Assembly (NCBI GenBank): GCA_964654485.1
Contig: CAZZJI010000007.1
Span: forward strand, 3,276-67,275
Length of the DNA stretch: 64,000 nt
DNA from: an uncultured Gammaproteobacteria bacterium
Lineage (GTDB): Bacteria > Pseudomonadota > Gammaproteobacteria > SG8-11
Reading direction: 5' to 3'
Notes under the pieces: model-generated
What the model was told of the DNA's origin: nothing
What the model saw: the letters and a program-made list of their open reading frames with translations, nothing else
Databases searched by the model: none
Part shown: positions 2,904-48,213 of the stretch, piece after piece
Numbering within the stretch: position 1 is the stretch's first letter
How the letters are laid out: the number at the start of each line of letters is the position of its first letter
Position numbers and translations under genes: made by a program

Positions 2904-3940
2904 ACGGAATAGCGGTAAATCACAAACAATCGCCTTACAGCCGTAGCTGGAAGCGTTTTAAGTCCAACAAGCGAGGATATTACAGTCTATGGATTTTCAG
3001 TGTCCTGTTTGTACTTAGCTTGGTTGCAGAAGTGTTCAGCAATGACAAGCCGATCATAATCAGTTATCACAATACCTATTATTTTCCAGTTTTAAAAACG
3101 TATGCCGAGACTGAGTTTGGTGGGGATTTTGAAACCGAGGCGGACTACAATGACGAATTTATCAAAGAAAAAATAACCAACAATGGTAATTGGGCCATTT
3201 ATGCACCCAACCCGTATAGTTACGATAGCATCAGCTATTTTAATGAACAACCTAATCCGGCCTCGCCATCAGAGCAGAATTTACTGGGGACCGATGATCG
3301 TGGGCGAGATGTACTTGCAAGGTTAATTTATGGTTTTCGGTTATCTGTGGTGTTTGCGCTGGTATTGACTGTCATCGGCACTTTAATCGGGATACTGGCA
3401 GGGTCACTGCAAGGTTATATAGGCGGTCGCTTTGATTTATTTTCTCAACGTATTATTGAAGTGTGGTCTTCCATGCCTGAACTCTATATCCTGATTATCT
3501 TTTCCTCGATATTTAATCAGAGTGTCTTCTTGTTGATTATACTGCTGTCTGCTTTTGGCTGGATGGGGCTGTCTGATTATGTGCGTGCGGAATTTCTGCG
3601 TGGTCGAAATATGGACTATGTAAAGGCTGCACGTGCATTGGGCGCGACTAATCGTTCTATAATGTTTCGGCATTTATTACCCAACGGGTTAACACCCGTT
3701 ATCACTTTTTTACCATTCCGTATTAGCGGGGCTATTCTTGCACTGACCAGCCTGGACTTTCTCGGTTTAGGTGTGCCGCCCTCAACGCCAAGTTTGGGTG
3801 AATTACTCGCGCAGGGCAAAGAGAATATAGATGCCTGGTGGTTATCATTGACAACATTTTTTGTATTAGTAGGGACCTTGATGTTGCTGATTTTTATTGG
3901 CGAGGCCTTGCGCGAAGCGATGGATACACGACGAGGATAG
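2900..3940 (+). CDS. yejE: ABC transporter permease, YejE-like
   Basis: 346 aa. 4-nt overlap with yejB. DppC/OppC-type permease features and position in the operon. Confidence 0.85.
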   Translation: MNGIAVNHKQSPYSRSWKRFKSNKRGYYSLWIFSVLFVLSLVAEVFSNDKPIIISYHNTYYFPVLKTYAETEFGGDFETEADYNDEFIKEKITNNGNWAIYAPNPYSYDSISYFNEQPNPASPSEQNLLGTDDRGRDVLARLIYGFRLSVVFALVLTVIGTLIGILAGSLQGYIGGRFDLFSQRIIEVWSSMPELYILIIFSSIFNQSVFLLIILLSAFGWMGLSDYVRAEFLRGRNMDYVKAARALGATNRSIMFRHLLPNGLTPVITFLPFRISGAILALTSLDFLGLGVPPSTPSLGELLAQGKENIDAWWLSLTTFFVLVGTLMLLIFIGEALREAMDTRRG

Positions 3941-8498: not shown

Positions 8499-11102
8499 GT
8501 GATCAAAATCCTTTCCAAATTACTGGCAAATCTTTCTTTGATTAATAACCACTATAAACAAGTGGCCAAATTCATGTGTTGTTCAGCCCCGGGTTTAATT
8601 GTGTTTTTGCTTTTGTTGATGCCGATGGCCGGTGTGGCCAATGACGCATTTCCTCGGCCTGCCCAACTCGAACCCGATGTCAATTTTTGGAAGCGTGTGT
8701 ATACCGAAATCAACACTGACCAAGGTTATATTCATGATGATAGAAATCTCAGCGTTGTTTATGAAAAAATTAACTTACCTGCCAATGCCAGCAGAAAAAC
8801 GAGACAACGCTATGTAAAACGGGTAAAGAAAAAATACAAAGCAATATTAAAGAAACTGGCCAAAGGTAACTATCGAAACTTAAATAGAGAAGAAAGTCGT
8901 ATATTGGCGTTATGGCCCAAAGGTGTCAGTAAGAAAACCTTGCGAAGAGCGATTAACCAAACTCGGTTTCAGCGAGGACAATCGGATAAATTTAGAGAAG
9001 GCCTGATTCGATCCGGTATGTGGAAACCTTATATTCTGGAAGTATTGGATAAAATGGATTTGCCTAGGGAAATTTCAGCGCTACCTCATGTGGAATCTTC
9101 TTTTAATCATAAGGCCTATTCGAAAGTAGGCGCTGCCGGGATGTGGCAGTTTATGCGCTCGACAGGTCGGCGATTTATGCGTGTTGATCATGTTGTTGAC
9201 GAACGTATGGATCCGTTGAAGGCGACCGTCGCCGCTGCTAGATTGCTCGATTATAATTTTAAAGTGACCGGCACCTGGCCACTCGCGCTTATTTCCTATA
9301 ATCACGGTTCAGCAGGCATGCGTCGCGCATCACGGGCGATCGGTACCACAGATATTGTGCCGATATTGCGTAAATACAGCAGTCGTACTTTTAAATTTGC
9401 CTCGCGAAATTTTTACGTCGCGTTTCTCGCCGCAGTGGAAATCGATAAAAATTCTGAAAAATATTTTGGGAAGCTTGTTCTAAAACCGCCTTTCGATTAT
9501 GAAATTATAAAAATTCCTGCATACATGACTATAACAGGGATCGGCAAAGCGCTGGGTTTATCCAGCGCTGAATTGAAGTTGTCGAATCCAGCGTTACGCT
9601 CGCCAGTGTGGAATGGCAATAAATATGTTCCAAAAAATTATGAACTTAAAATCGATAACAAATATATTAAAGGAAAAGAATTCGCTAATAACGCGATTGC
9701 GTCTATTGATCCAAGCTTTCATTTTCACAAACAAAAGCCTGATCGATTTCACCGGGTTCGACGTGGGCAGACGCTATCGGTGATCGCTGCACGCTATGGT
9801 GTTCGAGTTAGCGAAATTGTTGCGTTAAATGGGCTTCGTAATCGTCACAGCATTCGTGCGGGTAAAACATTACGCTTGCCGCAAAAAGGGAAAGGGCAGG
9901 TTATAAGACGTACTGTCGTTGCAGAAAATCGTTCTCCAGATATTGGCCCGATACCGATTCCGGAAAGTGGTAAATATAAAGTCCGCCGGGGTGATAATAT
10001 TGATCGTATTGCTAAACGGTTTGGTATTACATCCAAAGAATTACAAAAACTTAATCGCATTCGTAATAAGAACCGTATTTATCCTGGACAGTATCTGACT
10101 TTGGCGAAGGCGCCCAGCGACACTCAGCGGACCTTAACGCAAGCCAAGGAACTACAGTTGGCAAGGGTGGATAAAAAACAAGTTATTTCGCATAAGCCTG
10201 ACGTTACAATTCAGCAATCAAGCCAGCAACAAATACAAGCAGTTGAAAAAATTGCAGTTGTTGCGACTCAAGACAAAGCTGTAAATGTAAAACAAAAAAT
10301 AAAGAAAGTTGAGTTTCCGATATCAGAAACATTGAATAGCGAGACAACAAATCAGAGTGAAAGCCAGGATGCAGACTCCACTGAAGCAAATAATACAAAT
10401 GTGATAATTGCTTCAGTTGTGACAGGAGAAGATGAAAATAAAATTGCGAACCTGGAAACAGTTCCGGTATTGGAGCCGACTGCTGATCAAACCCCGCTAC
10501 AGCTAGAAAATATTAGTGACACAGCGTCAGCAACAGTGCTAACAGATGCAAGTGAACAAGTGTTGAGTTCTATTGAAAATGAAGTAGTGCTTGATAATTC
10601 TAATGAGTCAATTGGTAGTTCGGCAATTTCAGATTCTGAAGACGAGTTATTGGCGGATCCCAGCGATTACTCTGTATTTAAAAACAAAACGATTGAAATA
10701 CAAGCTGCTGAAACATTAGGGCATTATGCCGAATGGTTACAATTAAGAGCGAGTCGCTTGAGAAGGGTAAATTCAATGCGTTATGGTACGCCAGTTGTTG
10801 TTGGCAGACGGTTAAAACTGGATTTTTCCCGAGTGACGCCAGAGCAGTTTGAACAAGAACGGGTTGCCTATCATCGAACCTTACAAGGTGAGTTCTTTGA
10901 GCAGTATCAAATTAACGGCACTGATAAATATAAACTTAGACGGGGTCAATCTATTTGGGTGCTAGCAAATCGAAAATACAAAATACCTATTTGGCTTTTA
11001 CGGCAATATAATCCGGACCTTGATTTCAATAAAGTACGCCGGGGAACTATTATTACCTTTCCCAAAATAGAAGCTCGTTCAACAGTTGAAACGACCGGCT
11101 AA
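8499..11102 (+). CDS. mltD: Lytic murein transglycosylase with LysM repeats (MltD-like), unusually long; more likely start at 8574 (MCCSAPGLIVFLLLLMPMAGVA signal)
   Basis: SLT catalytic region HVESSFNHKAYSKVGAAGMWQFM. LysM-like repeats (HRVRRGQTLSVIAARYGV..., YKVRRGDNIDRIAKRFGI..., YKLRRGQSIWVLANRYKI...). Confidence 0.8.
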   Translation: MIKILSKLLANLSLINNHYKQVAKFMCCSAPGLIVFLLLLMPMAGVANDAFPRPAQLEPDVNFWKRVYTEINTDQGYIHDDRNLSVVYEKINLPANASRKTRQRYVKRVKKKYKAILKKLAKGNYRNLNREESRILALWPKGVSKKTLRRAINQTRFQRGQSDKFREGLIRSGMWKPYILEVLDKMDLPREISALPHVESSFNHKAYSKVGAAGMWQFMRSTGRRFMRVDHVVDERMDPLKATVAAARLLDYNFKVTGTWPLALISYNHGSAGMRRASRAIGTTDIVPILRKYSSRTFKFASRNFYVAFLAAVEIDKNSEKYFGKLVLKPPFDYEIIKIPAYMTITGIGKALGLSSAELKLSNPALRSPVWNGNKYVPKNYELKIDNKYIKGKEFANNAIASIDPSFHFHKQKPDRFHRVRRGQTLSVIAARYGVRVSEIVALNGLRNRHSIRAGKTLRLPQKGKGQVIRRTVVAENRSPDIGPIPIPESGKYKVRRGDNIDRIAKRFGITSKELQKLNRIRNKNRIYPGQYLTLAKAPSDTQRTLTQAKELQLARVDKKQVISHKPDVTIQQSSQQQIQAVEKIAVVATQDKAVNVKQKIKKVEFPISETLNSETTNQSESQDADSTEANNTNVIIASVVTGEDENKIANLETVPVLEPTADQTPLQLENISDTASATVLTDASEQVLSSIENEVVLDNSNESIGSSAISDSEDELLADPSDYSVFKNKTIEIQAAETLGHYAEWLQLRASRLRRVNSMRYGTPVVVGRRLKLDFSRVTPEQFEQERVAYHRTLQGEFFEQYQINGTDKYKLRRGQSIWVLANRKYKIPIWLLRQYNPDLDFNKVRRGTIITFPKIEARSTVETTG

Positions 11103-34299: not shown

Positions 34300-34356
34300 T
34301 CAGGACACAGTATTGTTAATAGCGAACTGCCTTTTTCACTTTTCGCTATTGTATCT

Positions 34357-34746
34357 CTAATGCTTAAATTTATTTTTATTAAAATAAATTATTTGCGCTG
34401 TTGCATGTTGCATTGGTTTTGATATTGGTACAGCGTTCAGTTTCGGTTCCACCAGTAATTTTACCGTGGAAACCAAGCCATTATCGCCGGTGACCGCATC
34501 CCACATCATTGATGATAATTTAATGCAGGCACCCAATGGAGTACGTGCTTTTTTTCGCTCCATATCAATGCGAAATTGTAAGCCTCGTAATCGTCTTTGT
34601 TTGGAAATAGGAATACGCTCGAAAAATTGCTCAATGTAATTCTGACGGCGTTGTTCAAATCCTTCTGGATCATTACTGGCCAGATTAGCCCATTCATCGA
34701 AATCAATTCGAGTGCTTTTTTTGAAATTTTGTTTAATATTTGACAT
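34357..34746 (-). CDS. DUF3135-like small protein
   Basis: 129 aa. FDEWANLASNDPEGFEQRRQNYIEQF...RLRGLQFRIDMERKKARTPLGACIKLSSMMWD matches my memory of DUF3135 proteins. Confidence 0.6.
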   Translation of the reverse strand: MSNIKQNFKKSTRIDFDEWANLASNDPEGFEQRRQNYIEQFFERIPISKQRRLRGLQFRIDMERKKARTPLGACIKLSSMMWDAVTGDNGLVSTVKLLVEPKLNAVPISKPMQHATAQIIYFNKNKFKH

Positions 34747-35083
34747 CTGAAACTACCTTATTTTGCTGCGAGAACATTGTACAACATGATCAATGGTTCA
34801 CTCACGGGACACCGATGACTCTATATAACCGCGTAAATATAACGGTTATTGTTTGTGTCCAGCACTTAGTTAAATTTTACCTGTAACGTGCCGGTTAGGC
34901 TATGAAACGGCTAATATTTATCTATATAAGAACACGCTGAAAAGCACTGAATAATTTATTTTGATTTTTATAACATAATAAAAACAAATAGATAGAAATG
35001 CGAGCAGTATCAAGTAAAAGTCGGGGGTTCGGGCTGTATTGCCTAAATGTTGTATTTTTGCGGTAGAAATGTGATGTGCCATA

Positions 35084-35127
35084 TGGCGACCCGGAGACGA
35101 TTCGAACGTCCGATGTGGCTTAGCAGG
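35084..35127 (-). pseudogene. Orphan tRNA 3' half (T arm, acceptor 3' strand, CCA) plus 10-nt anticodon-loop core
   Basis: Minus strand reads ...CCTGCTAAGC CACATC GGACG TTCGAAT CGTCT CCGGGTC G CCA. Canonical T loop and encoded CCA, but no matching 5' half within 100 nt. Confidence 0.65.
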
Positions 35128-35419
35128 GGGTGTTTTTTAAAAAAATTAGATTTCCATGACCAAGTAAAGATAAAAATACGGGCCTCATATACGTGTAGGC
35201 AAGGACCGGTTGCGGTCAATGCTTTCGGCTTTACTTGCTGTCTCGCAGGCTTTGATCTCTGCTGATGCGTCAGAAATCTTTCTGCCTTCAATATTCGGTA
35301 AAAACTAGCCTCTGAGGCGATATAGCGTCGTTCATCCTTGTGTCGGAGAAATTATGAAACTAACTACATTAATATATTGCGCTCCATCCAGGCTACGTTA
35401 GTTTTATAATATGTCTCGC

Positions 35420-35779
35420 TTATCTGTTGGTAATTAATTTTGGTTGGCTGAGTTGAAATACACCATTGTGTGCGCCGCCAATATATTCAGCACATACATT
35501 AAGGCATTCACCCACGTGAAAATTCTTAAGAGATTCAAAACAAAATCCCTCGGCAACTTTACCTACAGACGCAAATTGTGGTCCAAAGACTGGATTGATA
35601 CTTAATACTTCAAACTTGACCAGCCATTTGCGCTCATCATCGGGAGTCTGTGAACATTCCAACAGCCGGATTTCCAATTGTGACTCATTGGGTGCAACAG
35701 AAACTGAACCAAATCGTGGTGGTACTGGCCGTGGTGGTACTGGCATGGTGGAAACCTCGTGACAAAACGTATAGGACAA
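35420..35779 (-). CDS. Hypothetical protein (119 aa from TTG; 108 aa if ATG at 35746 is used)
   Basis: Open frame downstream of the protease gene, with Pro-rich N-terminus PVPPRPVPPRFG. No family recognised. Confidence 0.45.
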   Translation of the reverse strand: MSYTFCHEVSTMPVPPRPVPPRFGSVSVAPNESQLEIRLLECSQTPDDERKWLVKFEVLSINPVFGPQFASVGKVAEGFCFESLKNFHVGECLNVCAEYIGGAHNGVFQLSQPKLITNR

Positions 35780-35781
35780 CT

Positions 35782-35818
35782 AACTGCTCGGCATCAAATA
35801 GGGCAATGCCGAGCAGTT
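35782..35818 (-). terminator. Strong stem-loop (13-bp perfect arms) between protease gene and downstream ORF
   Basis: aactgctcggcat - caaatagggca - atgccgagcagtt. Lies 22 nt after the protease stop. The following minus-strand sequence is only moderately T-rich. Confidence 0.45.
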
Positions 35819-35839
35819 GATAGACCAGTATAAACTACA

Positions 35840-37405
35840 TTAGCCAAGATATACACGATATAGCGTATCGTTGTCGACATAAACAGTCACTAAATTGTTA
35901 TTTGCCCGTGCCTCACATAAGGCAGTAAAGGCATTGGTAACGCCATCAGGGTTTCCTGTTTTTATTTTTCGCCACCCTAGCCCCTGAATGTTTGCCCAAG
36001 CATTTTGAGAATGGTAACTAGTGTAGAGACGATTAACAATTTTGTTTGTATGCCACTCCTTAACCGCTGCTCCACCGACGTTAATATTGGCCGTTATATT
36101 TTCTCCCACGCGAGTAATCGCGGAAACATTGACTTCGGAGCCAGTACCATCATACGCGTTGCTGTTGGGCGTGGTCGTAGAATTAAAAGCGTTATTTCCA
36201 TTGAAAGGAAAAGTATCTCCACTGTCTCCGGAATTCGCATTACTGTTCAAGTCTCGCTTGCCATCAGCTTGTTCGATATCTACGAGGTAATGCGCTTCGT
36301 CTGTGTTATTTGATTGATTGTCATCAACATGTTCGATAATACAGCCCTCTCCTGGTAGATAAGAATCAAAACCCAGTTTTTGTCGATTCGCTACCAAAAA
36401 ATACTCTTTTGAATCTGCGCTGCCAATCGGCAATTTATAAACATCACCATTATTGAAATAAGGTTTAATATTTACACTTTGCGCACTATTGAATACCGTC
36501 GTTGAGGAAATCCAACCGGCTTTCAGTTTACACCAGGCAGACGGATGCGCTGGTGTGTGACCGTTGTTGTTCCAGCTGCCTCCGGCCATCAAATCCCATC
36601 GACCGGTACCACGTGATGAATAATCGGTGTCATACAGATCTGGCCAGCTCATTAATAAATGGCCTAGTTCATGTGACATAACACCTACCCGACCATCTTC
36701 CGGCGCCATGAAATAGCTACGTATTTGCACGCCGTTTACCGTCTTCGGCGTAATCGACCACTTGTGCGACCAAAAATCGCTTTTGTCACCCGTCGCTTCA
36801 GCGCCAGAACCAGCGGGAATGATAATCAATGCGTCTACTACACCATCACCATCATTATCGTATTGCGCAAAGTTAATATGAGGAGCAGCAAGATCAATGA
36901 CATCCTCTACCAGTTTCTGAGCGTTACGCGGGTAGTCTGCGAAACCGTAATCTTCATTGGTATAATATGATTTGGGTTGCGGTGCCCGATACCAGCCTAC
37001 AGTGACACCGCCGCTTCCGCCAACTTCGCCAACAATATCCAATTTACCGTATGAGGCTTCCCGGTAAAAGTCGTTCATGCTTCCACCAGCATAAGTTCCG
37101 CTGGAAAAGAGCATATCTCTAAAGTGTGACTGCGTTTGTGTTCCCGCCTTGTCTGAAAAATCCACCAGCAGAACCAAGGCCCTACGTGTGCCGACGATAG
37201 GGCTTAAACCCTTAGTGGGTGAGATCAGGGTATGAGCCCGAGTTTTAGGTGGACGCATCAAGATTTTCGTTGCACTTTCTCGATCGAGAACTTCGTCATC
37301 TGCTTTTTCAGGAAGTTCAAGACCAATACGTAGGCGGTGTTTTGAACGGATAATTTTCTCCTCCAATTCTGGTGAAGGAGGTGCGATACAAAGATTGTTG
37401 GACAT
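35840..37405 (-). CDS. M6-type (immune inhibitor A-like) zinc metalloprotease domain protein with novel ~70-aa C-terminal domain; no signal peptide
   Basis: 521 aa. Good RBS (agagga). HExxH as MSHELGHLL. Surrounding pattern (LVLLVDFSD..., DFYREASYG, DGDGVVDALIIIPAG, FWSHKW, GRWDLMAGGSWN) matches my memory of M6 family domains. Hydrophilic N-terminus MSNNLCIAPPSPELEEK. Confidence 0.75.
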   Translation of the reverse strand: MSNNLCIAPPSPELEEKIIRSKHRLRIGLELPEKADDEVLDRESATKILMRPPKTRAHTLISPTKGLSPIVGTRRALVLLVDFSDKAGTQTQSHFRDMLFSSGTYAGGSMNDFYREASYGKLDIVGEVGGSGGVTVGWYRAPQPKSYYTNEDYGFADYPRNAQKLVEDVIDLAAPHINFAQYDNDGDGVVDALIIIPAGSGAEATGDKSDFWSHKWSITPKTVNGVQIRSYFMAPEDGRVGVMSHELGHLLMSWPDLYDTDYSSRGTGRWDLMAGGSWNNNGHTPAHPSAWCKLKAGWISSTTVFNSAQSVNIKPYFNNGDVYKLPIGSADSKEYFLVANRQKLGFDSYLPGEGCIIEHVDDNQSNNTDEAHYLVDIEQADGKRDLNSNANSGDSGDTFPFNGNNAFNSTTTPNSNAYDGTGSEVNVSAITRVGENITANINVGGAAVKEWHTNKIVNRLYTSYHSQNAWANIQGLGWRKIKTGNPDGVTNAFTALCEARANNNLVTVYVDNDTLYRVYLG

Positions 37406-37488
37406 GGTTTTTTCCTCTTTTTATTGTTAGATTCGATACAAAATTCCTTGCTCTATAGGCGAAGATTCAGTTCCATTTTTGTCTTCGT

Positions 37489-37797
37489 TCAAGCGACCTC
37501 ATGAACATGGATTACCATTTTCTCAATGGATTGCGCCATGGGTACCCGGTACGCTTGCATACTAAGTAAATCACCAAGCTCTATTTTCGGATGACCAGAC
37601 AGGCTCACATGGGCACGAATGATGTAGTCCGATGCGGGATCGCGGACAACGAAGTCTATCGAAAACGATACCGATGTTTTCATGCCAGCTTGGTGGAACA
37701 CATGGTTAATTCGCAAACTAGTTAACTTTATTGAAGATCCATCCAGCATGCCAACGTCTTCCGCGTAAACATACAAAACCGCATCCGCCTGTCGCAA
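37489..37797 (-). CDS. Hypothetical 102-aa protein (weak motif-level resemblance to YbaY/YscW-type beta-sandwich domains)
   Basis: TTG start 3 nt after the upstream stop, suggesting translational coupling. DAVLYVYAEDVGMLDGSSIKL and YIIRAHVSLSG...GDLL patterns. Confidence 0.45.
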   Translation of the reverse strand: MRQADAVLYVYAEDVGMLDGSSIKLTSLRINHVFHQAGMKTSVSFSIDFVVRDPASDYIIRAHVSLSGHPKIELGDLLSMQAYRVPMAQSIEKMVIHVHEVA

Positions 37798-37800
37798 TGC

Positions 37801-38241
37801 TTACTTTTTAGTACTGCTTCGCGAGCTTGCTTTCTTAGTCGTTGGCTTTACCTCTGATTTATCTTCTAAATCAGGCGGCGGTGGTGCATCTTGCGACTGC
37901 GTTTCATCCAAACCAGGTGCCGGTACTACTATGCTACCTATGCTACCGTTCTTGATACTATGGAAAGATTCGTCGGAGAGTGGCCCAGGTGCGCTATCCA
38001 AGTTTGCTAGCGTATCTGCATTCTGCGTAACTTCTTCAGGACCTGGCGCCCCAGAAAAAGCGGCGCTTTCAGTGGCAGCCGACGACTGACCAGCCTCGGG
38101 ACCCGGTGCCGCATTAACGTCCATCTGTATACCAGAAAATGCCAAGTTATGCGGTGCGGGGGCTTCGGCCAAGTCAGCACTTGAAGTATTTTTTAAGAAC
38201 TCCCCGCCCATGGGAATTTTAATCGTGATTTCCGGGATCAT
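37801..38241 (-). CDS. Hypothetical low-complexity protein with four APGP/APGL-acidic repeats and Lys/Ser-rich tail
   Basis: 146 aa. Repeats AAPGPEAGQ, GAPGPEEVTQ, SAPGPLSDES, VPAPGLDETQ. C-terminus KPTTKKASSRSSTKK. Confidence 0.5.
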   Translation of the reverse strand: MIPEITIKIPMGGEFLKNTSSADLAEAPAPHNLAFSGIQMDVNAAPGPEAGQSSAATESAAFSGAPGPEEVTQNADTLANLDSAPGPLSDESFHSIKNGSIGSIVVPAPGLDETQSQDAPPPPDLEDKSEVKPTTKKASSRSSTKK

Positions 38242-38274
38242 TTTTCATTCTCCTATAATTTATTTGATGGAACA

Positions 38275-38300
38275 CAATGGCTGCAGTACTGCAGCCATTG
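38275..38300. other. Perfect 26-nt palindrome (stem-loop) between the 72-aa gene and the 146-aa gene
   Basis: caatggctgcagt|actgcagccattg. Contains two ctgcag sites. Confidence 0.6.
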
Positions 38301-38316
38301 ACAGCCGACATACATC

Positions 38317-38535
38317 TCAATTCATATACGCACGTTCAATAAGATTCTCGACAATATAGACACTAACGGTACGATTATTGGCTTTAGCAACGCTCAGCAA
38401 AGTAAAAGTATTGGTGACGCCATCACTGTTATCAGTTTTTATTTTTCTCCATCCAAGACCATCTATCCGCGCCCAACCATTTTGTGAATGAAAAGTTGTA
38501 TAAGTTTGAAGAACGGCTTTATTATTATTCCACAT
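38317..38535 (-). CDS. Free-standing copy of the protease C-terminal domain (72 aa)
   Basis: ATG at 38535 preceded by aagagga. MWNNNKAVLQTYTTFHSQNGWARIDGLGWRKIKTDNSDGVTNTFTLLSVAKANNRTVSVYIV... aligns along its whole length with the last ~72 aa of the 521-aa protease. Confidence 0.7.
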   Translation of the reverse strand: MWNNNKAVLQTYTTFHSQNGWARIDGLGWRKIKTDNSDGVTNTFTLLSVAKANNRTVSVYIVENLIERAYMN

Positions 38536-38657
38536 GATAGTTTCCTCTTTTTTGTTGTTGTAAAAATTTTTTTTCATCAAGATTCGAAGGCAATCCAAAC
38601 TACGACGCTTGCTTTTACTAAAATTATTTATTTTTTATTAAATTATAACGTCTTAAT

Positions 38658-38948
38658 CTAACTTATAAATTTAATTTTATTATTTAAATAGACCCGATAA
38701 ATGCTGCTACCATTTGCAAACACATTGATGGTTCGGTTATTTGCCTTTGCCTCGCATAAAACAACAAAGGTATTGGTAACGCCATCAGAATTACCGATAT
38801 TAATTTTTATCCAACCCAAACCTTGAATTAACGCCCAGGCATTTTGCGAGTGATAAGTCGAATAAACTCGGCCAACGGTATTGTGCGCCGCTGACTGCAA
38901 CGCCCATTTCAAGGTCGTCTTGTGTTGCATCAATATCATCGCCTGCAA
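38658..38948 (-). CDS. Second free-standing (or frameshift-fused) copy of the protease C-terminal domain
   Basis: ...KWALQSAAHNTVGRVYSTYHSQNAWALIQGLGWIKINIGNSDGVTNTFVVLCEAKANNRTINVF...IYRVYL. Weak start signals. The 5' 149 nt overlaps ORF 38800..39147 in another frame. Confidence 0.55.
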   Translation of the reverse strand: MQAMILMQHKTTLKWALQSAAHNTVGRVYSTYHSQNAWALIQGLGWIKINIGNSDGVTNTFVVLCEAKANNRTINVFANGSSIYRVYLNNKIKFIS

Positions 38949-39147
38949 GCTTAGCCTGGGTGCGGCTCTTCATCTCTTCTGCGGTACCCAGTACGATATC
39001 GCCTTCGAACAAAGCAAGTCCATCAACAACTGTGTATTGTACTGGCTTATTTTTAAATGTAAGGCCAGAAACGAAACCGGTAAAAATTTCGTCGCCGGAT
39101 TGAAACTCAGTACTTTCGCTTTCGCTTTCGGTATCTTGGTTCGCCAT
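38800..39147 (-). CDS. Hypothetical acidic N-terminal ORF; its 3' third is the out-of-frame shadow of 38658..38948 (possible frameshifted fusion)
   Basis: MANQDTESESESTEF...PVQYTVVDGLALFEGDIVLGTAEEM. Its last ~45 aa are read from the same nucleotides as the conserved domain in the other frame. Confidence 0.4.
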   Translation of the reverse strand: MANQDTESESESTEFQSGDEIFTGFVSGLTFKNKPVQYTVVDGLALFEGDIVLGTAEEMKSRTQAKLAGDDIDATQDDLEMGVAVSGAQYRWPSLFDLSLAKCLGVNSRFGLDKN

Positions 39148-39459
39148 AGGTTTGTTAGTATTATTATTAATTCCTTCTGCTCACCAAAGCTGAGTGAAAT
39201 CTATTCTTGCAATCGCGTCTATTTTTCACAGTGATAAATTACCCCGGTACTTGTGAAATATTTACTTTGTGATTAAATATTATTCTAATGACTTAAGTTA
39301 AAAACGGTATTTCGAAGTCGATCCCGGAGTGGGTCCCATAGTCAAGACAGTAATCCAAAAATATATGTTGTGACACAGTTTGGGTACAACTGAAGGCATG
39401 GAGGTGAAATTGGGTTGTTGTACTACGTTACGCGGGTATGAGTTATTTCAAAAGAGAAA

Positions 39460-39536
39460 TGGCCCGCTCGAATGGATTCGAACCATCGGCCTGCCCCTTA
39501 GGAGGGGGCTGCTCTATCCAGCTGAGCTACGAGCGG
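39460..39536 (-). tRNA. tRNA-Arg (anticodon CCT)
   Basis: 77 nt cloverleaf folded by hand. Acceptor CCGCTCG/CGAGCGG. D arm GCTC-AGCTGGATA-GAGC (A20 present). Anticodon arm GCCCC-CTCCTAA-GGGGC. Variable AGGCC. T arm GATGG-TTCGAAT-CCATT. Discriminator G, encoded CCA. Confidence 0.85.
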
Positions 39537-39595
39537 TTTGGGGTATTATACAGGATTTGACTGTTAACTTAAGTGCGTTTCCCTAATGATTGTTA

Positions 39596-39636
39596 GCTTA
39601 GGAGGCGACTGCTCTATCCGACTGTGCTACCGGGGC
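39596..39636 (-). pseudogene. Orphan tRNA-Arg(CCT)-like 5' half (acceptor 5' strand, D arm, anticodon stem 5' strand and loop)
   Basis: Minus strand reads GCCCCGG TA GCAC AGTCGGATA GAGC A GTCGC CTCCTAA GC, then diverges (taacaatc) with no anticodon-stem partner or T arm. Confidence 0.65.
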
Positions 39637-39690
39637 AACAAACGTGTATTGAATAATCTTGTTGTTACACTAAAATAAATATCGAGTGAT

Positions 39691-39987
39691 TTATGAGTAT
39701 TCATCTGTTTTTCCCCTTTTCCATTTTATATACTGAAGATCTTCATGATGGCCAGAAAATTCAATCCATTCAAATAGAAACCCTTTTAAGCCGCCGAACC
39801 AATCGGGTCGGTAAGCAACGACCTTGTAGGTGATGCAACCTGTCCCCTGGATTTTTCGATTTGTGTGATCTGTTAAAATAACGCTATAAGCTATTGATAT
39901 ATTGATAAAATATGTATGTGACTGGTCATTCACAGACGTATATTTAGAGATTAGAAACCACGTTGGCGTACCTAAAAACGCGGCCAA
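39691..39987 (-). CDS. Hypothetical ORF (98 aa, TTG start), doubtful
   Basis: Only an open frame. No ATG, no clear RBS, no recognised motifs. Confidence 0.2.
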   Translation of the reverse strand: MAAFLGTPTWFLISKYTSVNDQSHTYFINISIAYSVILTDHTNRKIQGTGCITYKVVAYRPDWFGGLKGFLFEWIEFSGHHEDLQYIKWKRGKTDEYS

Positions 39988-40263
39988 TGTTAATCGTGTT
40001 GTAATAAAACTTTGTCCCAGTCGTCTTTAGTTATTCTAGTTAAGGAACCAGTTAAGTAATCGTATTAAGTAATGGGATATTAGTCACCGGACTAAGAAGA
40101 TCGCATATTATAGCCTAATAAAAAAGAGTATAAATCGAAATATCCCGTGTTGATTAAATAATAGTGCTAGTATTAGCCGGTTTTTGCGGTGATAGATGTA
40201 AATCTTCAGATAAAAAAATGCCTATACAAACGAAATATAAACAGGTTGTCGGGGTTTTAACAA

Positions 40264-41250
40264 ATGCATGCAACATTACCGTTATTAGAAACAACAAATT
40301 TTCCATTGATAAAAAGATCCAGACTCGAAACACTGCAAGTAAATCTGGGTTACAAGTGCAACCAACAGTGTTTACATTGTCACGTTAACGCCAGCCCCCA
40401 ACGAAAAGAGGTGATGGATAAGGAGACTGTTGACACCGTTATCGCTTTTTTGGAATCAACCAACGTAAACTCAAATGCAAACTCAGGCGTAAAGAAGCTG
40501 GACCTCACTGGCGGTGCGCCTGAACTTAATCCGTACTTTCGCAAATTGGTACGTCACGCTCGTCAATTGGGAATTCATGTGATAGACAGGTGTAATCTCA
40601 CAATACTTGAAGAACCCGGTTTTGAAGATTTAGCAGAATTTTTGGCTGAGCAGCAGGTTGAGGTCATCGCATCATTACCATGCTATTTAGAAGATAACGT
40701 AAACAAGCAACGTGGTAGCGGTGTTTTTGGTACCAGTATTAGCGGGTTGCGGAAATTAAATAAATTAGGTTATGGAAAACCAGGCACAGGTTTAGAACTC
40801 AACCTGGTTTACAATCCGCAGGGGCCGGTACTGCCGCCAGCACAAGTGATGCTTGAACAAGACTATAAAGAAAATCTTGGGGAGCGGTTTTCGGTTGTTT
40901 TTAATAATTTATTCACACTTGCCAATATGCCCATTAAACGATTCGGCAGTACGTTAATCTCTAAAGGCCAATTTGAAGACTATATGTTACTTTTACGTGG
41001 CTCTCATAATACTGAAAATTTACGCTCTGTAATGTGCAAAATATTGATAAGTGTTGATTGGCGGGGATATGTGTATGACTGTGATTTTAACCAGATGTTA
41101 GGTTTACCATTGGGTGCAACAAAGAAACCAAGTATACATATAAAAGATTTAACCACAGTTGATCTCGAAGGTGGCTCTATATGTGTAAAAGACCATTGTT
41201 ATGGTTGTACCGCGGGGCAGGGAAGTAGCTGTGGTGGTGCTCTCGCATAA
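40264..41250 (+). CDS. arsS: Radical SAM/Cys-rich-domain protein of the ArsS (arsenosugar biosynthesis radical SAM) family
   Basis: 328 aa. CNQQCLHC radical SAM motif near the N-terminus. C-terminal Cys-rich tail CVKDHCYGCTAGQGSSCGG. Followed by a DUF2064-type gene, as I recall for this family. Confidence 0.75.
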   Translation: MHATLPLLETTNFPLIKRSRLETLQVNLGYKCNQQCLHCHVNASPQRKEVMDKETVDTVIAFLESTNVNSNANSGVKKLDLTGGAPELNPYFRKLVRHARQLGIHVIDRCNLTILEEPGFEDLAEFLAEQQVEVIASLPCYLEDNVNKQRGSGVFGTSISGLRKLNKLGYGKPGTGLELNLVYNPQGPVLPPAQVMLEQDYKENLGERFSVVFNNLFTLANMPIKRFGSTLISKGQFEDYMLLLRGSHNTENLRSVMCKILISVDWRGYVYDCDFNQMLGLPLGATKKPSIHIKDLTTVDLEGGSICVKDHCYGCTAGQGSSCGGALA

Positions 41251-44091: not shown

Positions 44092-44772
44092 TTATTGTAA
44101 TGCAAAAACAACGGGCACAATAAACTCCAGTGTCTGGTGCAGATTATTTTCCGGCATGGGCGGAAATGGATTTGCCCGTTCGGCCATTTCAAGCGCGGCT
44201 TTATCAAGCAGTCGATTACCGGTGCGCTGTTCCAACGTAATTTTTAGGGTCTGCCCGGTTTGATCGATCAATATGCGTAATCGACCCTCTCCTTCAATGC
44301 GCATACGCTTGGCCCTTTTGGGGTATTTTTTTTGTTTTTCCAGCCAGGCAACGAGTAGCTGTTCATACTTTGCCATAGCGGTGGCGTTCAGTGGTGCAGG
44401 GCTAGATTCTACTGGGGAAGGTTCTTGTATGGAAACAGGTGCTTCCACAACCTCAGGAGGATTTTCAATCGGTAATGGATCAGGTTGTGGTTGTGGTACA
44501 GGTTCTTGAATCACAGGCTCTGGAACATGCCTAGGTTCTGGTTCCGGCTTCGGTTTAGGGGTAACGGGTGGTTTGATTTTTTTCTGAGGTGGCGGTGTGA
44601 CAGGTTCGACAGCGGTGGTGGTCTCTGCAATAGCCGCCAGCAAACTAACACGAAGCGTTTGTTCAGGTGGTTCTGGCAGAGGTGCAGGCAGCGCCAGCCA
44701 AAACGCTATACCGCTATGCAGGGCGAGTGCGACGAGTAGCGCGGTGCTCATTTGCTGCCAGGTGATCGTCAT
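44092..44772 (-). CDS. tonB: Energy transducer TonB
   Basis: 226 aa. N-terminal TM anchor, Pro-rich spacer (KPKPEPEPRHVPEPVIQEPVPQPQPDP), C-terminal TonB domain. Downstream of exbB-exbD. Confidence 0.9.
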   Translation of the reverse strand: MTITWQQMSTALLVALALHSGIAFWLALPAPLPEPPEQTLRVSLLAAIAETTTAVEPVTPPPQKKIKPPVTPKPKPEPEPRHVPEPVIQEPVPQPQPDPLPIENPPEVVEAPVSIQEPSPVESSPAPLNATAMAKYEQLLVAWLEKQKKYPKRAKRMRIEGEGRLRILIDQTGQTLKITLEQRTGNRLLDKAALEMAERANPFPPMPENNLHQTLEFIVPVVFALQ

Positions 44773-44781
44773 GGGTACCGG

Positions 44782-45180
44782 CTACTTCTGGGTGGTGGCT
44801 AATGCAACATTGTTACCGCCAGCGGCGCGAATCTCATCCATGACCTTCAATAGCTGCTGTACTTCGGTACGGGCATCACTTTTCAGGGTAATGGCGACAT
44901 CGGTATTGTCTGCGATCAAGGGTTCGATAGTCTGGCGCAGTTTATCAAGTTGAATCGGTTCGCTATTGAGTGCCAGTTCACCTGACGCGTTGAGAGAAAC
45001 CGTAATCGGTGTAATTTCAGTAACAGTCGCACCAGCAGATTCGGGCAGTTCCAACTCGATGGCTTCCGGCACTAAAAAGGTACTGGTCAACATAAAAAAG
45101 ACCAATAGCAAAAAAACAATATCAATTAATGGCGCGATATCAAGGTGGGAATGGATGCGCGCACGGCCCTCAAATTCCAT
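44782..45180 (-). CDS. exbD: Biopolymer transport protein ExbD/TolR
   Basis: Start at ATG 45180 (MEFEGRARIHSHLDIAPLIDIVFLLLVFF), overlapping the exbB end by 11 nt. The longer ORF to 45255 is rejected. Confidence 0.9.
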   Translation of the reverse strand: MEFEGRARIHSHLDIAPLIDIVFLLLVFFMLTSTFLVPEAIELELPESAGATVTEITPITVSLNASGELALNSEPIQLDKLRQTIEPLIADNTDVAITLKSDARTEVQQLLKVMDEIRAAGGNNVALATTQK

Positions 45181-45847
45181 GGGTTTCGTCCTCGATTTTG
45201 TCGTCGTCACGGGTTGAGATATTGGCCGGTGTTTTACCAAAATGACGCAACACACGAATGCTTACGTCCTTCATGGATGCACGTACATGATCCACTTCAC
45301 CTTCTAAATAATAGAATGCGGCCATAGCGGGAATGGCCACGGTTAATCCAAAGGCAGTGGTTAGCAGTGCTTCCCAAATCCCACCCGAAAGAATCGACGG
45401 ATCAACACGGCTACCGGCGGCTTCAAGATTCATAAAGGCGACAATCATGCCGGTAACTGTGCCTAACAATCCCAACAATGGACTCAAGTGAGCGATGGAT
45501 GAGAGGCCGCGTAGCCACGATTCAAGATTGCGGATTTGCGTAGAACCAACCCGACTCACTTCGGCCTCCACATCTTTTGCCGACATGGCCGGGTCAGCGC
45601 CGCAACGTATGGCACTTTCCATTACACATGCGACGGGGCTGTGCTGTAGTTGTAATGCATGCAAAGCACTGTTGTAATCGCCTTGTTGCAGTGCGGTCAG
45701 TGTTGGATCGACAAAATCTAAACGACGCAGACCACTACGGAAATACTGAAACAGTTTAAGCAGAATGATGGCGACGGCCAGAACAGACATGGCTAGCAGT
45801 ACCCACATGACCGGCCCACCTTGTTGGAATAAACTCACTATATTCAT
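45170..45847 (-). CDS. exbB: MotA/TolQ/ExbB proton channel protein
   Basis: 225 aa, 3 TM. Conserved PLLGLLGTVTGMI and GIWEALLTTAFGL segments. Confidence 0.9.
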   Translation of the reverse strand: MNIVSLFQQGGPVMWVLLAMSVLAVAIILLKLFQYFRSGLRRLDFVDPTLTALQQGDYNSALHALQLQHSPVACVMESAIRCGADPAMSAKDVEAEVSRVGSTQIRNLESWLRGLSSIAHLSPLLGLLGTVTGMIVAFMNLEAAGSRVDPSILSGGIWEALLTTAFGLTVAIPAMAAFYYLEGEVDHVRASMKDVSIRVLRHFGKTPANISTRDDDKIEDETHGI

Positions 45848-45876
45848 AAGCGCTCAATTAACATTTTTAAAAGGAA

Positions 45877-45908
45877 ACGGGTGGCAACCAAAAGGGCTTG
45901 CTACCCGT
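45877..45908 (-). terminator. Stem-loop with T-rich tail between receptor gene and exbB (probable rho-independent terminator/attenuator)
   Basis: Minus strand: acgggtagcaa-gcccttttgg-ttgccacccgt (10 of 11 pairs), followed by ttccttttaaaaa. Confidence 0.5.
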
Positions 45909-45936
45909 AAACGAGCCATTCTTGGCGTAATGGGAT

Positions 45937-48213
45937 TTACAAATCCATTTCAACCCCGGCATAAACGAACTGCGGCAGGCCACCGCGTGCGCCATGGGGC
46001 TGACGCGATACGATATATTCTTCATCAAAGAGATTTTGCACTCCACCGAAGAGTTTCACCGTTTCGTTGATGCGATAAAAGACAGAAATATCCGTGGTAA
46101 AATAACTGTCTGTTTTGCCATATCGAGCATCGGGTTCGCCAGCCCCGTTAACTTGATTGTCAACATTATTGGCGCTGGTATATGTCTCGCTCACATAGTT
46201 ACCCGAGATGAACGCACCCCATTTTTTAGTCTCGACACCGCTACCCAGACTCAATGTAAACTTTGGAATATAAGGCACTGCATTGCCCGCTTTACCGAAG
46301 CTGAAAATCGATTCCGCATCCGTAGACGTTGAATCATTTTTTTGTTCCGCATTGGTATAGGTTGCGCTTAGGTAAGAAGGATTGTTGATCCGCCAATTGT
46401 TAGCGAGTCCGGCATCATATTGAAGTGCGAATTCAATCCCAAAGGTATCTACCTCGCCAAAGTTTTCATCATCACCAGTACCTGTCCCACCGACATTATC
46501 AGTCACGATTAAATCTTCAAAAGCCGTGTAAAAAATAGTGCTTTCAGCCGCAAATGCTTGCTGGATATTGCTATGACGTGTACCGATTTCAAAAGCGATG
46601 CTGGATTCTGGATCAAGGCCAGCGCGTGTGCCCCGAGGGCTGGGAGTGGAATAACCCGTGTGTAGGCCACCAAAACCTGTCCATTGTTCGCTGAACTGGT
46701 AGGCCGCACCCACGCCATAGGCACTGACATTAAAGCTGTTTTTACCGTCCCGACCTTTTGTGCCACCCGCACTTTGCAGGGTACCTTTGGGGTCTTCGGA
46801 GGTTTGATCCAGTGTTTCGTAACGAACTCCGGGTGTGATTGTCCAGGCACCTGTTTCAATGGTGTCTTGAACAAACAGTGCTAAGGCTTTTGTTTCCTGA
46901 AAACGATTACCTGCATCACCGGGTATGCCAGGTGTTATTCCCGTGATGGTGCCGTTAGTGGCCTGAGTATAGGTATCCTCCCATTGAAATCGAGTTATTT
47001 CATCTTGGTGTAGACGAAGGCCAGCCATTATTTCGTGTTGAACGTTGTCTGATCCAAAACGGAAATACCCGACTGACTCAAGACCTTGGGTGTAGTATTT
47101 ACGATTGTTGGCTCTGACTTTTAGTTCACATGCGGCGGTGCCCTTCATGCAGTCCTGAGACAATCCAGGGGTTTCAATAACCTGAGAAAGATTGTCTCCA
47201 TTGAGCGAGTTGAGCTTGTACCAGTTACGCTTGAAATCGGTCTGGTAGAGCGTTGCAATTACATCGAGATCATCAGTGGGGCTGATGCTCCAGCGCAACG
47301 AGGTTTGTTTCTGCTCACTTTTAATGTTATCGAAACGCGATGCCGCATAACGACGTAATGGATTGGCATTAAAATCAGCTTGGCTCAAGCCGAGATAGGT
47401 CTCATTGGCATCCAGTTCACTGGTGCCATGTTTAAATTCAAAACGTTGATACACCGCACTGTTCGGCTCCCATGATAGTTTCACCATGGCATCTGTTTTA
47501 TCAAAGCCGGTGTCATCACCGCTGCGAAAATCAGCAGTCTCATCAATTTTTTTGAAGCCGTTACTCTGTCGACGGTAACCTTCTACCAAAGCACCAAATT
47601 GCCCGGCCGCATCTGTATCAAAGGTATTTCCAAAATAGGCATGGGTACGTTGCTCGTTAAAACTGCCGAGCGTTGATTTCAGATAAGCCTTCTCTTTTGT
47701 TGGGATGGGGGTTGAAAGGTAGTTGATTACGCCGCCGGTTGTGTGAGGGCCGTATTTGATCTGACTGGACCCCTTCAATACTTCTAGTCCGCTCATGCGT
47801 CCCGTGGTGGGTGAATAGTAGGCCGCTGGCGCGGAATAAGGCGCAGGTGACATCATTACCCCATCTTCCATGATGGTTATTTTGGAATTACGGGTGGTAT
47901 CAACACCGCGTAAACTGATGCTGGGGAAGAGGCCAAAACCGTCTTCCTCTCGCACGTAAACCCCCGGCACCTTGCGAAGCACGCGGTTCACATCATCATA
48001 ATTTTGCTGACGAATATCTTCTTTTGTTATTACCTGGGCAGAGCCTGGTATTTTTTCGATATTAGCCGGATTACCAATCACCATGATTTTATCAAGCACA
48101 TTGGCCTTTGTATCCATCTCATCAGACTCTTTATCTGCTGCGTCAGCGGGTAGTACCAGGCCAAGCGTGGCAATAGCGATGGCATCGCGTAATAAACGAT
48201 GTTGTTTTTTCAC
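45937..48213 (-). CDS. TonB-dependent outer-membrane receptor (siderophore/iron-complex type)
   Basis: 758 aa. Signal peptide, plug-domain patterns (VITKEDIRQQNY, VPGVYV, ISLRGV, IMEDGV). Long beta-barrel. Fur box upstream. Confidence 0.9.
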   Translation of the reverse strand: MKKQHRLLRDAIAIATLGLVLPADAADKESDEMDTKANVLDKIMVIGNPANIEKIPGSAQVITKEDIRQQNYDDVNRVLRKVPGVYVREEDGFGLFPSISLRGVDTTRNSKITIMEDGVMMSPAPYSAPAAYYSPTTGRMSGLEVLKGSSQIKYGPHTTGGVINYLSTPIPTKEKAYLKSTLGSFNEQRTHAYFGNTFDTDAAGQFGALVEGYRRQSNGFKKIDETADFRSGDDTGFDKTDAMVKLSWEPNSAVYQRFEFKHGTSELDANETYLGLSQADFNANPLRRYAASRFDNIKSEQKQTSLRWSISPTDDLDVIATLYQTDFKRNWYKLNSLNGDNLSQVIETPGLSQDCMKGTAACELKVRANNRKYYTQGLESVGYFRFGSDNVQHEIMAGLRLHQDEITRFQWEDTYTQATNGTITGITPGIPGDAGNRFQETKALALFVQDTIETGAWTITPGVRYETLDQTSEDPKGTLQSAGGTKGRDGKNSFNVSAYGVGAAYQFSEQWTGFGGLHTGYSTPSPRGTRAGLDPESSIAFEIGTRHSNIQQAFAAESTIFYTAFEDLIVTDNVGGTGTGDDENFGEVDTFGIEFALQYDAGLANNWRINNPSYLSATYTNAEQKNDSTSTDAESIFSFGKAGNAVPYIPKFTLSLGSGVETKKWGAFISGNYVSETYTSANNVDNQVNGAGEPDARYGKTDSYFTTDISVFYRINETVKLFGGVQNLFDEEYIVSRQPHGARGGLPQFVYAGVEMDL

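Follow-up and report, generated by a model that had tools for sequence, protein, structure and literature searches.

A foreign-type tRNA-Arg(CCU) gene inside an insert that splits the resident tRNA-Arg(CCU) gene of a marine gammaproteobacterium

What can take the place of a tRNA gene that an insertion has cut in two and not rebuilt? The question is raised by a 64-kb stretch of contig CAZZJI010000007.1 from an uncultured gammaproteobacterium (hereafter the window; all coordinates are positions in it), in which two halves of a tRNA-Arg(CCT) gene are separated by a 4.5-kb insert carrying an intact tRNA-Arg(CCT) gene of its own. tRNA genes are commonly regarded as safe places to land, since integrating elements rebuild them. 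Integration which does not rebuild the target and brings a substitute tRNA was demonstrated experimentally only in 2024, for actinobacteriophages, and has been described computationally for prophage-related sequences of Sinorhizobium. The first-pass annotation of the window, made from its letters alone, had interpreted the locus as a site-specific insertion into an anticodon loop. Below we refer to the split ancestral gene as A, to its 5' and 3' halves as A5 and A3, and to the intact tRNA gene of the insert as B. The split gene, B and all the insert genes are on the minus strand.

The split tRNA gene and its uninterrupted counterparts

A5 (39636-39596, GCCCCGGTAGCACAGTCGGATAGAGCAGTCGCCTCCTAAGC), an orphan 5' half that derives from the ancestral tRNA-Arg(CCT) gene, extends from the acceptor strand to the first 2 nucleotides (nt) past the anticodon loop, and no T arm follows it. 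It matches positions 1-41 of the intact tRNAs found in contigs L089, L090, L091, L093 and L094 of related bacteria, with the T12>A substitution breaking the D stem. A3, the orphan 3' half (35117-35084, CACATCGGACGTTCGAATCGTCTCCGGGTCGCCA), aligns with the 3' halves of the intact tRNAs in L089, L091, L093 and L094; the T arm is identical, and the changes are three substitutions (G41>C, G71>T and A73>G) and the loss of GG from the variable loop. Both halves are located where the first-pass annotation had placed them, and their sequences were checked. As both match the single ancestral gene of the relatives, they are not remnants of two different tRNA genes, an alternative which had also been named.

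Neither half is detected as a tRNA alone, and no tRNA is found at either junction by ARAGORN or Rfam. Joined in silico (the reverse complement of 39596-39636 followed by that of 35084-35117), the halves are called tRNA-Arg(cct) by ARAGORN, as had been anticipated. The acceptor strands of the joined molecule pair at six of seven positions, and there is one mismatch in each of the acceptor (C2-T71), D (A12-A23) and anticodon (C29-C41) stems. No mismatch is present in the T stem, whose G-U pair is also found in the functional tRNAs of the relatives, so the earlier claim of one mismatch per stem holds for three stems and fails for the T stem. The acceptor pairing and the short variable loop are as previously described, the loop having 3 nt instead of 5 through the GG deletion.

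Each junction contains a copy of a 10-bp core, which we assign to the left and right attachment sites, attL and attR. The attL-side core CCTCCTAAGC (39605-39596) is within A5, and the attR-side core CCTGCTAAGC (35127-35118) adjoins A3. The core begins with the final base of the anticodon stem's 5' strand, spans the whole 7-nt loop and takes in 2 bases at the start of the 3' strand. The two copies are identical at 9/10 positions, position 4 being C in attL and G in attR. This difference is on the element-arm side of attR and could represent either an original heterology between attP and attB outside a 6-7-bp overlap or a later mutation.

Uninterrupted counterparts of the split gene were found by a protein search with ArsS followed by contig look-ups. 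ArsS identity to the window is 94% for L094, 91% for L089/L090, 85% for L091 and 76% for L093, and one intact tRNA-Arg(CCT) is present in each of L089/L090, L091, L093 and L094. In L089/L090, L091 and L093 the order is DUF3135 gene, intact tRNA-Arg(CCT), arsS; PrkA-YeaH-SpoVR and the flagellar cluster flank this group on opposite sides, as they do in the window, and no protease genes are located at this empty site. In L094, the closest relative, the intact tRNA is at the start of the contig, which covers only the side from the tRNA to arsS. An uninterrupted tRNA between the DUF3135 gene and arsS, without the protease cluster, is what the first-pass annotation had expected of related genomes.

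The borders of the insert were defined by blastn alignment with L089, in which 8750-9551 corresponds to window 34351-35127 and 9542-9584 to window 39596-39638. L089 9542-9551 (CCTCCTAAGC) matches both insert ends, the overlap being exactly 10 nt and the alignments breaking at 35127 and 39596. The 9/10 repeat which the first-pass annotation had noticed is thus not a chance resemblance: the alignment breaks exactly there, and the same 10 nt match both ends. By this alignment, 4,468 bp (35128-39595) and a second copy of the 10-bp target segment are shown to have been added inside the ancestral tRNA gene, and the gene order of the relatives shows that in the ancestor of the species a single tRNA-Arg(CCU) gene lay between the DUF3135 gene and arsS. 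The predicted sequence of the empty site is ...GCAGTCGCCTCCTAAGCCACATCGGACG. The empty sites and the 10-nt duplication support an insertion into the anticodon loop without regeneration of the tRNA, as had been proposed; the enzyme itself we infer.

A broader ArsS scan of a collection with one genome per species yielded only relatives with at most 69% identity and without the DUF3135/PrkA synteny. In several of these distant gammaproteobacteria tRNA-Arg(CCT) is located on the opposite strand just upstream of arsS, and the tRNA of one of them (L041) shares its T arm and acceptor stem with the joined halves. A tRNA-Arg(CCT) beside arsS can be regarded as the ancestral arrangement. In another distant relative (L052) tRNA-Arg(CCT) and tRNA-Ala(CGC) upstream of arsS (3801-3877 and 9637-9712) are 5.7 kb apart, compared with 80 bp in L041; something may have been inserted between them in L052.

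The intact tRNA of L089 and L094 (GCCCCGGTAGCTCAG..GGATAGAGCAGTCGCCTCCTAAGCGACAGGTCGGACGTTCGAATCGTCTCCGGGGCACCA) served as the reference for decay. The halves differ from it by T12>A, G41>C, G71>T, A73>G, the GG deletion, one change in the variable D loop and C>G in the attR core. Each of the stem substitutions, at 12, 41 and 71, breaks a Watson-Crick pair and is uncompensated. Overall, the change in the halves amounts to about 8% over 75 nt, compared with about 25% divergence of the adjacent intergenic DNA from L089. Since three uncompensated pair-breaking substitutions are accompanied by a 2-nt deletion, the split gene looks as expected for a dead gene in decay, which agrees with the decay after disruption suggested previously.

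Seven contigs of the same species, with 99.5-100% identity to the window, were obtained from SRR6439370, SRR6439371, ERZ1742238 and ERZ909563. Wherever a same-species contig runs across a junction (three for attL, four for attR), the sequence is 100% identical, and no empty-site variant of the species was found among these contigs. The insertion is fixed in the species. Judging from these comparisons, it is old relative to the diversity within the species and younger than the splits from the L089 and L094 lineages, since L094 keeps the intact gene.

Physical continuity of the locus is supported by contig L002, in which attL and B are contiguous, and by L085, L087 and L088, in which attR is contiguous with the whole cassette of protein genes described below; all of these are identical to the window. 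Positions 1-137 of L002, a European Nucleotide Archive (ENA) metagenome contig, consist of Illumina adapter and low-complexity sequence fused inside B, which is an assembly artefact. The apparent divergence at this end is accounted for by the adapter sequence. The Logan contigs L001 and L004 both start at window 39508, 29 nt inside B, and L085 starts at 39363. The ends of L001 and L004 fit a repeat boundary at k=31, so the B sequence probably has a second context in SRR6439370 and SRR6439371. This context could be either an organism similar to L102 (see below) or a second locus of the same genome.

Contents of the insert

B (39460-39536) is an intact tRNA-Arg(CCT) with an encoded CCA end, found by ARAGORN and by Rfam (RF00005, 63.8 bits, E=1.4e-12), and is the sole tRNA detected by these programs in the window. 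An intact tRNA of distinct sequence just inside the right junction, as the window is written, had been reported by the first-pass annotation; this is confirmed, and the tRNA belongs to a foreign type. B has an acceptor stem with C1-G72 (CCGCTCG/CGAGCGG) and an anticodon stem CCCCC/GGGGC. A metagenome scan for tRNA-Arg(CCT) with the B acceptor stem found three contigs, L102, L103 and L104. B is identical to the chromosomal tRNA of L102 at 77/77 positions and to those of L103 and L104 at 73-74/77. B is not a hybrid with A, both its halves being identical to the L102 tRNA.

In the reading direction of the insert, B is preceded by 59 nt (39537-39595) which form the left end of the insert: the core is followed by about 14 nt, then by the native promoter of B and B itself. 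The sequence after the attL core, TAACAATCATT..., is not tRNA-like. About 45 nt of this end constitute a putative promoter region of the native B type, with TATAAT at -10 and a conserved CTTAA near -35. In blastn, window 39457-39563 corresponds to L102 4531-4638 with 92.6% identity, about 27 nt upstream of the tRNA, including TATAAT, also being aligned; the -10 box and the upstream CTTAA are common to B and to the L102, L103 and L104 tRNA genes. A generic promoter scan did not call the B promoter, and the assignment is based on this conservation among L102-L104.

In L102 and L104 the B-type tRNA is found among housekeeping genes (CorC-type transporter, cytochrome c assembly, sulfite reductase) and directly adjoins ycgR(PilZ)-flgN-flgM-flgA/cheV-cheR. 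Gene A occupies the corresponding position in the clade of the window, the intervening ars gene cluster aside. For the flagellar proteins, identity to those of the window is only 27-55% in L102 and L104, compared with 81-92% in L089. We read these loci as probable orthologues in two distant clades and B as a likely xenologue from an L102-like clade. L102 comes from the same metagenome assembly as one of the contigs of the window species, has a similar guanine-cytosine (GC) content, and its tetranucleotide distance to the window falls within the window's own range. Since B remained unchanged relative to L102 (77/77) while the halves of A decayed by about 8%, the comparison points to selection acting on B. 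The possibility that B is present to serve the codon usage of the cargo was rejected, as the cassette has only one AGG in 965 codons, compared with 2.5 per 1000 in the host genes.

The rest of the insert is occupied by a cassette of protein genes between two non-coding stretches with tiny open reading frames (ORFs) only. The spacer between B and the cassette (39148-39459) contains ORFs of no more than 40 amino acids (aa) or antisense to the tRNA only and, apart from the tRNA itself, shows no similarity to phage or plasmid records. The first gene of the cassette (38682-39147) is a remnant of an astacin (M12) gene, recognised by using the intact astacins (342/343 aa) from L095 and L105 as tblastn queries. 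It consists of an N-terminal part of 91 aa (39147-38866) and a C-terminal part of 66 aa (38879-38682) in different frames; the internal deletion has removed residues ~92-277, which constitute the catalytic domain. Most of the astacin gene is also missing from the Halomonas cassette (L099). Next come a gene for a 72-aa protein (38317-38535), called in the same-species contig L085 and having 65-73% identity to its counterpart in L095, L096 and L099, and a gene for a 146-aa protein (37801-38241) which has 41% identity to a syntenic 140-aa gene of L095 and no Pfam or PHROG match. They are followed by a gene for a protein of about 100 aa (37489-37797) with 46-49% identity to syntenic genes of L095 and L096; its homologues in L095 and L099 give a weak signal of a YscW-like lipoprotein (PF09619).

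The largest product of the cassette is an intact 521-aa M6 (immune inhibitor A-like) metalloprotease encoded at 35840-37405 (PF05547, E=1.8e-24), with homologues of 60-79% identity in Nitrosomonas, Halomonas, Coralliovum, Vibrio, Fodinibius and Algibacter. The last gene (35420-35779; ~108-119 aa) has 53-55% identity to the gene downstream of M6 in L095 and L096. A domain of about 70 aa (repeat family D1; consensus YSTYHSQNAWA.IQGLGW.KIK.G..DGVTN.F..L..A.AN..V) occurs three times: at the C-terminus of the astacin remnant (38682-38879), as the stand-alone 72-aa protein (38317-38535) and at the C-terminus of M6 (35846-36055). It has no Pfam or PHROG match and is kept in the cassettes of L095, L096, L099 and L105. 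The non-coding right end of the insert, a putative P arm, covers 35128-35419 and ends with ...TTTTTTTAAAAAACACCC.

Overall, the cassette can be described as a collinear seven-gene secreted-protease module. The same collinear module is present, with 60-79% identity, in L095 (a plasmid-like contig rich in insertion sequences (IS)), L096 (Nitrosomonas marina), L099 (Halomonas) and L105 (a metagenome contig), and annotated homologues of the cassette occur in Alpha-, Beta- and Gammaproteobacteria, Bacteroidota and Balneolota. With such a distribution, the cargo is a horizontally mobile, widely transferred module. The insert itself is decaying, because astacin has lost its catalytic domain, although M6 is intact. 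The closest relative of the cassette, with M6 79% identical, is located in L095 (662-7457) directly after a duplicated unit of an IS5-type transposase and an HU-like protein; this duplicated unit brackets ParA, resolvase and toxin-antitoxin genes.

Two observations concern the surroundings of the insert. In the stretch from A5 to arsS, a remnant of a VapC/PIN toxin gene survives (39720-39779, plus strand); its 20 aa have 80% identity to the C-terminal end of the L091 PIN protein, and in L091 an intact VapBC-like pair is located between the tRNA and arsS. A block coding for TonB, ExbD, ExbB and a TonB-dependent receptor (44092-48213) is found between the VTT/pyridine-nucleotide-disulfide-oxidoreductase gene and the PilZ gene. 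Since the two genes flanking it are adjacent in L089, L091 and L093, this block is a second lineage-specific insertion; its GC content is about 0.48-0.53, compared with 0.42 for the window.

Possible origin of the locus

We consider it probable, if far from certain, that the insert arrived by integrase-type recombination at a short core in the anticodon loop, that the tRNA was not rebuilt and that the cognate tRNA brought by the element took over. A circular element would have undergone one recombination with the chromosome, at a short core which the two had in common and which is centred on the anticodon loop; the clean 10-bp duplication centred on this loop makes a single reciprocal crossover the favoured route. 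The crossover would have been catalysed by a tyrosine-type integrase, a postulated enzyme, no recombinase being present, which either acted in trans or has been deleted since. Among the crossover subsites used by tyrosine integrases the anticodon loop is the most frequent, and no recombinases other than those of the tyrosine type are known to target tRNA genes (PMC4383910). The predicted junction of the circle is ...TTTTTTTAAAAAACACCC-CCT[C/G]CTAAGC-TAACAATCATTAGGGAAACG.

As neither junction rebuilds the tRNA, B, 59 nt inside the left end, would now supply the tRNA-Arg(CCU) function. The B gene with its own promoter presumably originated in a distant gammaproteobacterial lineage. Decay of the split halves would mean that precise excision no longer restores the old gene, so that the foreign tRNA would be locked in. 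More speculatively, an imprecise excision from a tRNA-Arg(CCU) site of the B type in some earlier host may have given the element both B and its promoter. The locus as it stands is best read as a fixed remnant without a recombinase.

Several results weigh against this scenario. Pfam and PHROGs scans of all the insert ORFs found no integrase, excisionase, transposase, recombinase or phage gene, in agreement with the first-pass annotation, which had seen none of the mobility genes within the 4.5 kb; the other window ORFs scanned by Pfam, which are ordinary chromosomal genes, include no recombinase either. In the reconstructed attP, no arm-type motif except the core itself is repeated more than expected from shuffled sequence. 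The collections searched contain neither a free, excised or otherwise-located copy of the element nor an integrase-bearing relative. No viral contig carries B or the protease, and the phage and plasmid records show generic tRNA similarity only. Elsewhere the cassette stands apart from tRNA genes: in five other loci (L095, L096, L099, L105 and others) neither a tRNA nor an integrase is associated with it. The composition of the insert is ordinary, with a GC content of 0.434 against 0.419 and a tetranucleotide distance ranking 73 of 102; a k-mer comparison, which had been suggested earlier, does not distinguish the insert from its flanks and is hence uninformative. Finally, the same genome might in principle also contain a locus of the L102 type, and a replacement by B would then be unnecessary.

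Routes without an integrase are also conceivable. The insert could be foreign chromosomal DNA, B together with a neighbouring protease island of the B-type donor, captured once by illegitimate recombination and without a dedicated mobile element, either when a staggered double-strand break within the tRNA gene was repaired or through microhomology at CCTCCTAAG. Such a capture would account for the lack of a recombinase and of an att-arm architecture, B and its promoter do resemble ordinary chromosomal DNA of another gammaproteobacterium, and microhomology with the target is available, as CCTCCTAAG is also present in B. We nevertheless regard it as rather unlikely, as two independent joins would need the same 10 nt, for which a single crossover with a circle is simpler, and as an integrase strategy already documented combines a short core with a cognate tRNA in this way. 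A DDE-type transposon or composite element, landing in the anticodon loop with a 10-bp target-site duplication and having lost its transposase or used one in trans, would also leave a short direct duplication around the insert, and the closest relative of the cassette does sit among IS5-type transposase genes in L095. The duplication is, however, explained equally well by a shared att core and is centred exactly on the 7-nt anticodon loop, the classic integrase crossover site. There are no terminal inverted repeats between the insert ends and no transposase domain, and transposition leaves unexplained why the insert has a cognate tRNA of the same anticodon; we find this origin very doubtful. 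A group I or II intron in the anticodon loop was rejected, as no intron family, nor any RNA family besides tRNA, is found by the Rfam E-value scan of 34500-40300, 10 nt of the exon are duplicated and the insert is full of protein genes.

Other alternatives concern the role of B and the assembly. If the genome has a second, native locus of the L102 type, B may be a passenger or an intragenomic duplicate, the loss of A being tolerated. The shared metagenome assembly, similar GC content and compatible tetranucleotide distance of L102 are in line with this, and so are the Logan contigs breaking 29 nt inside B as if its sequence had a second context in the samples. L102 and L104 have, however, their own ycgR-flgN-flgM-flgA-cheV-cheR cluster by the B-type tRNA, in the position of gene A, a layout more in keeping with orthologous loci of two clades than with paralogues within a single genome; the preservation of B relative to L102 beside the changed halves of A also implies selection on B. 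On balance, a passenger role seems unlikely to us. A chimera or misjoin at the repeated tRNA sequence might be suspected from the short-read contigs that break in or near B and from the adapter at the end of L002, and yet attL with B (L002) and attR with the cassette (L085, L087, L088) are identical to the window in independent samples and assemblers, which makes an assembly error exceedingly improbable.

Under the integrase scenario, the locus would represent the long-term outcome of a non-rebuilding integration in a marine gammaproteobacterium, with matched empty sites in four relatives: the native tRNA-Arg(CCU) permanently replaced by a xenologous one, the recombinase gone, the halves decaying and a mobile protease cassette left beside the new tRNA. 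It would constitute a concrete example of the horizontal displacement of a "conserved" tRNA gene. Island-finding tools expecting a rebuilt tRNA and a fragment would miss or misdelimit such inserts. A bolder idea, to which we assign a low probability, is that the insert is a minimal, recombinase-less cargo island of non-phage nature which moves between gammaproteobacteria with the help of an integrase in trans and stabilises itself by swapping tRNAs. Such an island would destroy the resident tRNA-Arg(CCU) and supply the only working copy, so the host could not lose the insert once the halves had decayed. tRNA replacement would then be a general, addiction-like means of retention of small genomic islands rather than a device of phage lysogeny only, and also a route for xenologous displacement of tRNA genes.

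Comparison with known systems

In canonical genomic islands with the Islander signature, attP carries the 3' (rarely the 5') part of the tRNA, so that a functional hybrid tRNA is formed, and a tyrosine integrase is encoded (Hudson, Lau & Williams, 2015; PMC4383910). The locus described here resembles them in its anticodon-centred subsite, the displaced fragment A3 at the far end and the accessory cargo. It differs from them in having no functional junction, no integrase and a working tRNA that forms a complete gene of its own. cis-mobilisable elements (CIMEs), described in Streptococcus thermophilus, are integrase-less, att-flanked remnants of integrative elements, defined by demonstrated mobilisation by a related integrative and conjugative element (ICE). 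Like CIMEs, the insert is a short cargo bounded by attL- and attR-like direct repeats without recombination genes; unlike for CIMEs, no partner element is known for it. Replacement of the target tRNA is not known from CIMEs.

A close parallel comes from another proteobacterium, Sinorhizobium meliloti, in which tRNA-Leu(UAG) was inactivated by a prophage-related sequence and replaced with that sequence's own tRNA-Leu(UAG), 97.6% identical to that of Octadecabacter (PMC11476347). In both cases the host tRNA is inactivated and the cognate tRNA of the element resembles that of an unrelated taxon, here with 100% identity to a distant gammaproteobacterium. The S. meliloti element is phage-related, whereas no phage genes are present in our insert, and the tRNA species, host class and cargo also differ.

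In its anatomy, the locus corresponds to tRNA-dependent lysogeny, in which attB is located in a tRNA gene, the core is 8-17 bp long, the tRNA is not rebuilt and the element encodes the cognate tRNA (Guerrero-Bustamante & Hatfull, mBio 2024; PMC10865867). It includes actinobacteriophages Fionnbharth, LeBron, Gaia and others, with experimentally shown dependence, and Lactobacillus johnsonii prophage Lj965 as a likely further case (PMC10865867). The shared features are a site in a host tRNA gene, split here in the anticodon loop, a short core only (10 bp in our case) with no functional tRNA at attL or attR, and the cognate tRNA-Arg(cct) carried by the insert. The phages in question are, however, complete and temperate, with a tyrosine integrase gene by attP, whereas our insert is 4.5 kb long and has neither an integrase nor arm-type repeats nor any PHROG match. 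It brings a protease cassette, belongs to a marine gammaproteobacterium, is fixed and decaying, and its tRNA function is putative. The first-pass annotation had called the non-regeneration of the tRNA and the presence of an element-borne one unusual; as precedents are published (PMC10865867, PMC11476347), these features are not without parallel. Since the insert has no integrase and is not a phage, we do not file it as a member of this group, although the locus works like tRNA-dependent integration; it may be a member that has decayed, or an island of non-phage nature with the same strategy. The locus reveals no new mechanism, the principle having been published since 2024; what it adds is a case, read from comparative sequence evidence, of fixed xenologous tRNA replacement outside Actinobacteria and, apparently, outside phages.

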